Origin: Patescibacteria group bacterium
GTDB taxonomy: Bacteria > Patescibacteriota > Minisyncoccia > Phycocordibacterales > CSBR16-119
NCBI GenBank assembly: GCA_030917865.1
Contig: JAUPTX010000003.1
Location: 1-60,131, forward strand
DNA: 60,131 nucleotides
Direction: 5' to 3'
Shown one piece after another: positions 17,608-56,286 of the stretch. The translations under genes were made by a program, and so were the position numbers. Under the pieces are notes generated by a model that had not been told where the DNA came from, made no database searches, and saw only the letters and a program-made list of their open reading frames with translations. Each line of letters opens with the position of its first letter. Position 1 is the stretch's first letter.

Positions 17608-17679
17608 CTCGCAAATATTACACCAATTGACCAAAATATAAAAGTTGTGTATATTCTTATAGTATTTTTAAATACAAAT

Positions 17680-17752
17680 CCTCTCGTAGCTCAGTCGGTA
17701 GAGCAGCTCCCTTTTAAGGAGACGGTCGTAGGTTCGATTCCTACCGAGAGGA
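17680..17752 (+). tRNA. tRNA-Lys(TTT)
   Basis: Cloverleaf; loop CT-TTT-AA. Confidence 0.95.
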
Positions 17753-17756
17753 CAAA

Positions 17757-17960
17757 ATTAAAAAAAACTCCAAGTTTCATGCTTGGAGTTTTTTAATTTC
17801 TTATTTCCGAAGGTGGGAATCGAACAAGAAGGGGGTCGGGGAAACATCTGTTTCCCCGTGGAGGAAAACAGCGAGCGTAGCGAGTGTCAGAAACCGTGGG
17901 TTTCTAAAGAGCGAGTTTACTTGTGAGTGAGATAGCGGAGCGTCCTACCGAGAGGACAAA
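17757..17960. mobile_element. Hairpin-rich ~190-bp insert ending in an 18-bp duplicate of the tRNA-Lys 3' end (att/MITE-like relic)
   Basis: tcctaccgagaggacaaa at 17739-17756 and 17943-17960; internal GC hairpins; no ORF. Confidence 0.5.
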
Positions 17961-18078
17961 CACAAAAAACCGCTTCGGCGGTTTTTTGTTTTTCAAACAA
18001 CACCAAGTGCCTACTTGCTAAAAAACCCCAAAACTCATAAAATCAATATATTAGCATTTTAATAACTTAAAGAATTAA

Positions 18079-44054: not shown

Positions 44055-44083
44055 GTGCCAGGGATTCGAACCCGGAGTCGCTC
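44055..44083 (-). repeat. Near-identical copy of the tRNA-Pro variable loop/T-arm/acceptor 3' segment
   Basis: gtgccagggattcgaacccggagtcgctc vs gtgccgggattcgaacccggagtcgctc at 44145-44172. Confidence 0.85.
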
Positions 44084-44139
44084 CCCTTTGGTCCAGGAAA
44101 TCAAAAGATTTCCGAAAATAAGTTTCGTTATGTTCAAAG

Positions 44140-44212
44140 TCGGGGTGCCGGGATTCGAACCCGGAGTCGCTCGTACCCAAAACGAGAATGTTAGCCGTTA
44201 CACCACACCCCG
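44140..44212 (-). tRNA. tRNA-Pro(TGG)
   Basis: Cloverleaf; CTCGT-TTTGGGT-ACGAG; C1 start. Confidence 0.94.
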
Positions 44213-50746: not shown

Positions 50747-51667
50747 TTATTTTTTCTTCTTGCTATGGAATTTTTGGTGAATCTCTTTTAGTTTAGAATC
50801 TGTAACGTGGGTATATATTTGTGTTGTTGCGATGTTTGCATGGCCGAGCATCATTTGCACGCTTCTTATATCTGCTCCGTTTTGAAGTAGATCTGTTGCG
50901 AAAGAGTGTCGGATCACGTGCGGCGTCACCTTTTTAGAAATACCTGCTTTTATCGCGTATTTTTTAACAAGCCTCTCGATTGACCTTGTCGTTAATCTTC
51001 CACCCTTTTTATCTTCTTTATTTTTACTCATTTGCACGAACATTGCTTCGTCAAAATCTTTTCGTTCTTTCAGATATTTTTTAATAGCCTCTTTAGCTGT
51101 TGGAGAAAGAAAAACAACTCGGACTTTTTCACCTTTTCCTCTGATAGAAAATTCATCTTTGGATAAATCTAAATCTTTGTTCAAGCTCGCAAGTTCTGAA
51201 ACACGAAGACCAGTAGAGAAAAAAAGTTCTAGTATTGCTTTGTCGCGAAGTGCGGAAGGGGAGTCACCTTCGGGTGCGTTTAAAAGTCGCGCAAGTTCGT
51301 TTTCTGTTATAAGGTCAAGACTTCTTTGAGAAATTTTTGCAAGTTCTATTTTGTCTGGTGTGAGGGTTTTTACACCACGTTTTAGCATGTATTTTAGAAA
51401 TGTTCGCAGGGCTATCAGGTGATAGTTTTGAGTATTCTTTTTAAGGTTTGCTTGAGATTGGCCTTTTACTTTTATACCAAGTTGACGGTTTAGGTAAATT
51501 CTAAATTCGCGAACCTTGTCTTCTGTTATACCACCAACATCTTTTATTTTCGCAAATTCAAAAAACCGAGTCAGATATCTGTCGTAGTTTTCGACAGTTT
51601 TAAGAGAAAGACCTTTTTCAATTTCTAAATATTCTAAGAACTGTATTTTTGCAGAGTTTGATTGCAT
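50747..51667 (-). CDS. XerC/XerD-type tyrosine recombinase
   Basis: RDKAILELFFSTGLRVSEL, GKG.KVR, HVIRHSFATDLL, LGHA...TTQIYTHV. Confidence 0.95.
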   Translation of the reverse strand: MQSNSAKIQFLEYLEIEKGLSLKTVENYDRYLTRFFEFAKIKDVGGITEDKVREFRIYLNRQLGIKVKGQSQANLKKNTQNYHLIALRTFLKYMLKRGVKTLTPDKIELAKISQRSLDLITENELARLLNAPEGDSPSALRDKAILELFFSTGLRVSELASLNKDLDLSKDEFSIRGKGEKVRVVFLSPTAKEAIKKYLKERKDFDEAMFVQMSKNKEDKKGGRLTTRSIERLVKKYAIKAGISKKVTPHVIRHSFATDLLQNGADIRSVQMMLGHANIATTQIYTHVTDSKLKEIHQKFHSKKKK

Positions 51668-56122: not shown

Positions 56123-56217
56123 GGGGGTATAGCTCAGTTGGTTAGAGCGAGATATCTACAAGGGTCATAACTTTGTATGTTCTGTCTAGGTCGGTGGTTC
56201 AATTCCACCTACTCCCA
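56123..56217 (+). tRNA. Atypical 95-nt tRNA gene with a 21-nt insert in the anticodon arm (CAT in the apical loop, or an intron-containing TAC)
   Basis: Intact acceptor stem GGGGGTA/TACTCCC, D arm GCTC/GAGC, T arm GGTGG-TTCAATT-CCACC; AGATA/TGTCT closes a 28-nt segment. Confidence 0.7.
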
Positions 56218-56286
56218 CGAAGCCCGTCTGCACTGCAGGCGGGCTTTTTCATTTTGTTTTTTTGAAAGCGTGGTAAAATTATTTTA

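Follow-up and report, generated by a model that had tools for sequence, protein, structure and literature searches.

A probable copy of a protein-less, structured element carrying sense and antisense copies of the tRNA tail, located behind tRNA-Lys in a Patescibacteria genome

The tRNA-Lys locus and its parts

The DNA analysed here (the window) is a stretch of 60,131 nucleotides from a Patescibacteria genome assembled to 462 kb and 76% complete. Its tRNA-Lys(UUU) gene is followed by a compact succession of features (Table 1), in which the tail of the tRNA leads into a hairpin, an inverted copy of the tail, a structured core and a second, direct copy of the tail, after which a terminator closes the unit. 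The direct repeat is an 18-mer, TCCTACCGAGAGGACAAA, which occurs exactly twice in the window and runs from T60 in the T-loop to the discriminator base A73 and four trailer bases. None of 100 shuffled sequences matched it, even when two mismatches were allowed, and beyond the exact 18 nt the similarity reaches 27 nt at 89%. The palindrome that follows the tRNA (hairpin 1) has a stem of 13-14 bp at 17762-17794 with a T-run on both strands, and it caps the inverted repeat that the tRNA-Lys tail forms with the antisense arm. Within this arm, GGTGGGAATCGAAC is complementary to the tRNA-Lys nucleotides 17732-17745 at 13 of 14 positions, covering T-loop and T-stem, while the acceptor part (17807-17811) is degenerate in the lineage of the window. 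A first-pass annotation of the same DNA had already described the 18-bp duplication, the terminator between its copies, the inverted T-arm string, the hairpins named H1 and H3 in Table 1 and the string GCGAGCGTAGCGAG (17871-17884), and all of these features were borne out by the present analysis.

Table 1. Features of the tRNA-Lys locus in the window and copies of the sister family elsewhere in the same genome
Feature	Position	Strand	Description
Promoter-like site upstream of tRNA-Lys	17627-17655		
tRNA-Lys(UUU)	17680-17752	+	Intact; ARAGORN and Rfam tRNA, 70.3 bits; host gene with mirrored 3' part
X, duplicated tRNA-Lys tail	17739-17756	+	T60 to A73 plus trailer CAAA; exact 18-nt repeat
Hairpin 1, bidirectional terminator-like palindrome	17755-17799	+	Stem 17762-17774 / 17782-17794, loop TTTCATG
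Left (antisense) arm	17807-17825	+	GGTGGGAATCGAAC at 17812-17825, reverse complement of tRNA positions 53-66 with one G·T
Conserved core	17826-17942	+	Covariance model R1 score 121 bits
Core part AAGAAGGGGGT	within 17826-17942	+	
Core hairpin H1	17837-17858	+	CGGGGAAACA/TGTTTCCCCG
Core part TGGAGGAAAACAG	after H1	+	Preceding G (17858) closes H1
Core H2 region	17872-17884	+	
Core hairpin H3	17889-17905	+	AGAAACC/GGTTTCT
Core H4, variable	17911-17927	+	
Core GTGAGAT	17927-17933	+	Pairs with left GAATCGAAC through tandem G·A
Core mini-hairpin	17934-17942	+	AGCGGAGCG
Right (sense) arm X*	17943-17960	+	Direct copy of tRNA positions 60-73 plus trailer CAAA
Hairpin 2, intrinsic terminator closing the unit	17962-17995	+	CCGC TTCG GCGG, then TTTTTTGTTTTT
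Family B copy behind tRNA-Ser(GGA)	C10:64128-64283	+	
Family B copy behind tRNA-Ser(GCU)	C9:27811-27966	+	
Family B copy behind tRNA-Tyr(GUA)	C6:929-1063	-	

The same annotation had called the insert ORF-less, which holds in substance. The sole frame, of 47 aa and starting with TTG, lies at 17783-17926 and is interrupted by two stops in the orthologue from a congener, so a coding insert was discarded; the lengths of the related elements described below have no triplet periodicity, and no reading frame is conserved among them. No internal promoter was found within the element of the window. At the gathering score, Rfam 15 returns only tRNA matches in the window, and a permissive search of 17800-17960 gave nothing above 22 bits or at half the gathering score of any family, the best match (E 0.025) being a ylbH leader that overlaps 17800-17861. 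No tmRNA was found in the window by ARAGORN. The inverted T-arm was also considered as part of a tRNA or tmRNA on the minus strand, a reading that was rejected because a matching 5' acceptor strand is missing and the G·U bias reported below favours the plus strand. Hairpin 1 is not a genome-wide REP either, since it is the sole CTCCAAG...CTTGGAG hairpin in this genome.

Family A: distribution, layout and folding

BLAST searches recovered many related copies of the insert at tRNA 3' ends in other CPR genomes, frequently more than one per genome among 60 relatives, so the possibility that it has no relatives clearly fails. A covariance model (R1) was built from 21 copies of this family, which is named family A. 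With the model, family A was detected in 99 of the 251 genomes of the order (39%), which represent 77 of its 171 genera and have 1-13 copies each. Of 200 genomes from elsewhere in the phylum, 16 have the element; the R1 matches are 83-169 nt long (median 130). By BLAST and covariance model together at E<=10, a search that includes weak and arm-only matches, the family A core is present in 55 of 61 relatives. A tRNA gene lies on the same strand no more than 250 nt upstream of 69 of the 93 copies examined, with 29 anticodon types represented. A second family A core was not detected by blastn-short in the genome of the window. The core is absent from 50,697 phage records and, by pattern, from IMG/VR, and a phage origin was discarded for this lack of matches in phage collections. 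As no Rfam family matches it and no description of family A was found in the full-text literature, the hint of the first-pass annotation that the system is undescribed apparently holds.

We think it probable that a widespread Patescibacteria element, protein-less, structured and present in multiple copies, has one of its copies at 17754-17995; it resides immediately behind tRNA genes and in some cases behind protein genes. The earlier suggestion of a small element without protein, tied to tRNA 3' ends, is thus supported. One layout is common to the 28 loci compared, namely X, a hairpin, the reverse complement of X, the core and X again, with a terminator in most of them. The hairpin is either a terminator or a mini-hairpin of the GCGAAGC type, and a closing terminator after the sense arm is usual in the copies of the relatives (untallied). 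The core has a length of about 115 nt and contains three to four covarying hairpins. Both arms covary with the adjacent tRNA, which can be Lys, four Arg types, Ala, Met, His, Leu, Asp, Gln, Gly or Glu, and in L006 and L010 the arms mirror the final codons of a protein gene instead. Only GAATCGAAC / GTGAGAT is constant across the arms.

The inner boundaries of the arms are well defined. Among 65 copies linked to a tRNA, 44 have an antisense arm that begins at tRNA position 53, and 57 have one that begins within positions 51-53; the sense arm begins at position 60 in 36, with a subfamily in which it starts at position 53. The outer ends are ragged and extend from inside the acceptor strand to at least 12 nt into the trailer, which is reached to this depth by the antisense arm in 13 copies and by the sense arm in 7. 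Across family A the flanking direct repeat has no fixed length (about 14 to 71 nt); in L086, L060 and L027 it takes in the terminator and measures 57-71 nt. Identity between the sense arm and its tRNA is 91% over positions 60-73. The antisense arm mirrors T-loop and T-stem well (about 90-95%), but for the acceptor strand it does so at no more than 40-60% of positions. Of 38 sites at which the sense arm deviates from the tRNA, 36 have an antisense arm complementary to the tRNA. Tandem units are present in L059, L012 and L060. L027 has a plain 71-nt direct duplication of the flank with the inverted arm almost absent. In a 'fixed-arm' subfamily of core A (L062-L069 and L038-L041, in G125, G158 and G114) the target is not copied; the arms are constant, each being a hairpin flanked by short inverted repeats, and near-identical copies are found at unrelated loci, often just past the terminator of a gene.

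The proposed secondary structure consists of an arm helix, which includes GAATCGAAC/GTGAGAT with its tandem G·A, the hairpins H1 and H3, and the mini-hairpin. In these helices 90% of cells pair, a share that drops to 30-56% once the partners are slid, and 12 pairs have changes at both members. Over 93 copies, with three misregistered pairs set aside, G·U outnumbers A·C by approximately 88 to 22, an excess which indicates that folding is selected on the tRNA-sense strand, either as RNA or as single-stranded DNA. For the transcript from the tRNA to the terminator, the predicted fold has -124 kcal/mol (z = -6.4); in this minimum-energy structure the T-arm of the tRNA pairs with the antisense arm, and the 5' acceptor strand of the tRNA pairs with the distal sense arm. 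Substitutions of the sense arm that preserve pairing with the tRNA 5' strand number 18, against 16.5 expected, in a comparison where some rows are misregistered.

Turnover, constraint and origin of the arms

In a tree of the cores, from which the arms were excluded, the genome labels require 40 changes, compared with a shuffled mean of 59 (minimum 54), and the tRNA-type labels require 46 changes, compared with a shuffled mean of 47. The cores therefore cluster by genome and not by tRNA type, which suggests that the element multiplies within genomes while its arms are rewritten for each target; the genome-wise clustering could also stem from concerted evolution. As this genome, at its present completeness, has no second copy of family A, mobility is deduced from the relatives. 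Within the genus of the window, the tRNA-Lys(UUU) site is occupied by family A in G000 and G005, by core B in G003 (L029, contig C2) and G007 (L030, contig C15), and by nothing in G002 (L031, the empty orthologous locus), which is a turnover of unrelated cores at one tRNA tail. An empty/filled polymorphism was not found, and the junction had no exact match in public metagenome and genome contigs.

The copy in G005 allows the constraint on the window copy to be estimated. The flanking genes of the two genomes are 76-87% identical at the first codon position, 85-93% at the second and 52-55% at the third, and the spacer after the sense arm is unalignable. The tRNA is 95% identical, the hairpin-1 region 85% with its loop kept, the antisense arm 100%, and the core 90% with no gaps. 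The sense arm of G005 has followed both acceptor-stem substitutions of its tRNA. The identity of the core, compared with that of third codon positions, shows that the window copy is constrained. Together with the tracking of the tRNA by the sense arm, this conservation points to a copy that was inherited and held by selection or gene conversion, and that is no decaying remnant. Judging from these alignments, the window copy is old and common to the congener G005. Such strong constraint is unusual for selfish DNA, and it fits a host function equally well.

Regarding the origin of the arms, we infer copy-back or template switching, with the T-loop as the seed. Priming at the T-loop followed by outward copying fits three features: the inner boundaries are sharp and lie in the T-loop, the outer ones are ragged, and there are palindromes centred on the trailing hairpin, clearest in L029, L075 and L061. 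Sequence resembling the sense strand of the T-loop (GTTCGAWTC / GTGAGAT) is present at both 3' ends of the duplex element. The 3' ends would prime on the universal T-loop of tRNA genes and then copy outward through the tail. Extension of one end would give the direct copy that continues into the chromosome; extension of the other, with a strand switch at the hairpin, would give the inverted copy joined to the intact tRNA. The chemistry might be provided by host enzymes of replication and repair, or by an unlinked nuclease or HUH enzyme. Under the same idea, staggered priming sites in L027 would lead to its long direct duplication with a scant inverted arm. A template-switch model of this kind would account for retargeting without a dedicated recombinase, and L027 and the fixed-arm subfamily suggest that one mechanism may not cover all copies. 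Snap-back and template-switch insertions, such as those of quasipalindrome correction and of eukaryotic polymerase-theta-type end joining, similarly have inverted and direct copies of the flank with junctions at microhomologies or hairpins. However, family A differs from one-off repair scars of this type in the conserved, structured core of 115 nt between the copies, which is found phylum-wide.

No enzyme linked to family A was found among the reverse transcriptase, Xer, Y1 and GIY-YIG genes examined. RVT_1 is present in 8 of 29 genomes with at least four copies and in 10 of 28 genomes with no copy, and it is absent from G114, G125, G206 and G197, which have 10-13 family A copies each; mobilisation by reverse transcriptase was discarded, as these genes are no commoner in high-copy than in zero-copy genomes. 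An Xer-like tyrosine recombinase (PF00589) is encoded in 56 of 57 genomes, element-bearing or not, and mostly by exactly one gene. In the window it lies at 50798-51310 on the minus strand, 33 kb from the element, and it is the only tyrosine recombinase detected in this genome. A dedicated integrase was rejected, since there is just this universal gene and the insert has no ORF. Genes for mini GIY-YIG nucleases occur in several copies in most of the 57 genomes, high-copy and zero-copy alike, and are thus not discriminating. Two stand-alone GIY-YIG genes of about 90 aa in G132 (C28:7248-7454 and C13:3014-3226) are located within approximately 130-220 nt of two family A elements with their tRNAs.

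Matches to Y1_Tnp were obtained in 72 of the 99 genomes with family A and in 75 of the 152 without it (odds ratio 2.7, p = 2e-4, phylogenetically uncorrected). The Y1 proteins have about 230 aa with HxH and Tyr motifs, and their best NCBIfam match is 'REP-associated tyrosine transposase', below the cut-off. Family A is present without a Y1 match in 27 genomes, including G215 (6 copies, 96% complete), G013 and the genome of the window, and R1 matched nothing significantly in the flanks of four Y1 genes, searched to about 1.5 kb. In L096 (G125:C13:19400-22700) and L097 (G114:C27:14000-16894), single RAYT-like Y1 genes lie between perfect palindromes of their own (GACAAGTCTGACTTGTC; CACTTGGAGGCTAAGCCTCCAAGTG), unrelated to the family A element; this arrangement is that of RAYT genes with their cognate REPs.

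The constraint data can also be read as the signature of a cis-acting RNA module that serves the host on read-through tRNA transcripts, an explanation that we find unlikely, though deserving of attention. The antisense arm would pair with the T-arm and tail of the tRNA or with the downstream sense copy, the core would set the winner, and the outcome would control or proof-read how the upstream RNA is matured at its 3' end, terminated or degraded. Its copies would arise by rare duplication and then be kept by selection, which is compatible with our preferred explanation. The purifying selection on the core, the covarying stems with their G·U bias on the tRNA-sense strand, the faithful complementarity of the antisense arm to the tRNA where the sense arm deviates, the tracking of two acceptor-stem changes in G005, and the low predicted folding energy with its alternative pairing between tRNA tail and antisense arm are all in its favour. 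However, the patchy distribution (39% of the order's genomes, 0-13 copies, differing tRNAs, and a site that loses or exchanges its element within one genus) is not what a needed regulator would show, and the acceptor strand is poorly mirrored by the antisense arm. Besides, hairpin 1, to all appearance an efficient terminator, separates the tRNA from an element with no internal promoter, so a sense-strand RNA would need read-through. A regulatory or processing role of read-through RNA is compatible with the constraint data, and it may coexist with mobility. We give little credit to a REPIN-like population moved in trans by a domesticated RAYT-type Y1 (HUH) transposase acting on the folded single strand. 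Family A resembles REPs and REPINs in being short, hairpin-forming, multi-copy, extragenic near gene ends or terminators, and long kept. The excess of Y1 matches among its host genomes, the size and motifs of the Y1 proteins and a strand-specific fold with GCGAAGC-type mini-hairpins, which are stable in DNA, also speak for this reading. Unlike REPs, its arms are copied from the neighbouring gene instead of forming a fixed palindrome, many genomes have no RAYT, and the Y1 genes of G125 and G114 are flanked by palindromes other than family A, with no R1 match near the four Y1 genes. Moreover, the target is neither duplicated nor mirrored in known Y1 transposition. The RAYT transposase envisaged in the first-pass annotation was not found in this genome, and across genomes its association with family A is weak. 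Membership among MITEs or REPs, which that annotation had also offered, is not supported, given arms copied from each target in place of fixed terminal repeats, a flanking direct repeat of variable length and no second core copy in this genome at its present completeness. Family A is like MITEs in being small, non-coding, multi-copy and foldable; unlike them, its terminal inverted repeats are constant over no more than about 9 T-loop-like bases, it lacks a short target-site duplication of set length, no autonomous parent could be found, and it is under strong purifying selection.

A mini-element of the IMEX type, as in CTX phage, is in our opinion very improbable. In this scheme the folded arm-core-arm strand would mimic the duplex target and be recombined by the Xer-like enzyme with a crossover in the T-loop. 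An integrated CTX-type element has the order X, cargo, inverted X, spacer, X, with a hairpin stem that reproduces the target duplex, and family A shares this topology, has both arm boundaries within the T-loop and coexists with an Xer-like gene here and in nearly all genomes tested. That gene is, however, present regardless of the element; site-specific exchange would bring the old arms along and leave a chimeric tRNA, whereas the actual arms match 29 tRNA types, and the outer ends of the repeat are ragged. Family A also differs from CTX-phi, which uses XerC/D at dif, in its target (the 3' end of a tRNA or other gene), in a stem that varies with each target and in its size of 0.2 kb. The first-pass annotation had pointed to the attL and attR repeats of integrative elements and had offered the scar of an excised island as one reading. 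To such a scar, left by an integrase-borne island deleted to 186 bp, or to a chance or assembly artefact, we attach next to no credence. The crossover of tyrosine integrases in tRNA genes takes place in the T-loop or the anticodon loop, and their integration is classically marked by a direct repeat of the tRNA 3' end, here of 18 nt; as in their elements, the repeat of the tRNA 3' part brackets an insert, the tRNA is intact and the inner boundary lies in the T-loop. Unlike them, family A has neither integrase nor cargo beside the universal Xer-like gene, and it has an inverted copy of the tail that the att reading leaves unexplained; unlike integrative elements, which keep to one att sequence, its core serves 29 tRNA types with rewritten arms and variable outer ends. 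The same core is found in about 100 independently assembled genomes and is absent from phage collections, and the insert is a conserved and folded unit, 90% identical to the congener orthologue at a divergence where synonymous sites are saturated. A more speculative idea, which we consider a long shot, is a 'guide plus spare part' cassette, in which the antisense arm would direct the cassette to the tRNA's T-arm and tail (gene or transcript), the core would be catalytic or recruit an enzyme, and the sense arm, kept faithful to the tRNA, would be the donor of a replacement tail. If true, it would permit templated repair or rewriting of the 3' end of the gene, and self-retargeting to any T-loop without a transposase of its own.

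Implications, sister family B and other tRNA-tail duplicates

If the preferred reading of a target-copying family A element holds, Patescibacteria carry a class of genetic element without close precedent. It would be a protein-less unit that writes antisense and sense copies of the last ~20 bases of its target around itself, hops among tRNA genes leaving them undamaged, and is thereafter as well conserved as coding sequence. Such an element would represent a new route for DNA movement, or for 3'-end control, among the smallest genomes of cells. It would account for many 'tRNA fragment' and 'att-like' signals reported from CPR assemblies, and it would offer annotators a model for intergenic sequence that is as yet unexplained and amounts to several hundred bases per genome. 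It might also point to a target-copying mechanism that is usable as a tool.

A sister family, B, follows the same arm logic with a different core and is present in 30 of 61 relatives. Its antisense arm is split by an extra hairpin exactly between the acceptor and T-stem parts. The first-pass annotation had counted tRNA-Lys as one of four tRNAs in the window with partial self-duplication. This holds only in part. In the window tRNA-Lys alone has the architecture, tRNA-Pro has a plain direct duplicate of its T-arm, and nothing comparable was seen at the other tRNAs; on other contigs of the genome, tRNA-Ser(GGA), tRNA-Ser(GCU) and tRNA-Tyr carry the sister element (Table 1).

Other kinds of tRNA-related sequence were observed. 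The tRNA-Pro gene of the window (44139-44212, minus strand) has a plain direct duplicate at 44055-44083, about 60 nt past the gene and covering variable loop and T-arm, of which 19 nt are exact (GACTCCGGGTTCGAATCCC); with neither an inverted copy nor a core of family A or B, it is a tRNA fragment of a different kind. At tRNA-Ile(UAU) on another contig of the genome (C9:19756-19880), a near-exact direct copy of 27 nt of the 3' part (GGTCCTAGGTTCGAATCCTAGAGGGTGGAC) is found 26 nt later. Finally, directly after tRNA-Ile(GAU), a tRNA-shaped gene with about 21 extra bases in the anticodon arm lies at 56123-56218 of the window (plus strand), which ARAGORN reports as tRNA-??? and Rfam scores as tRNA with 54 bits.
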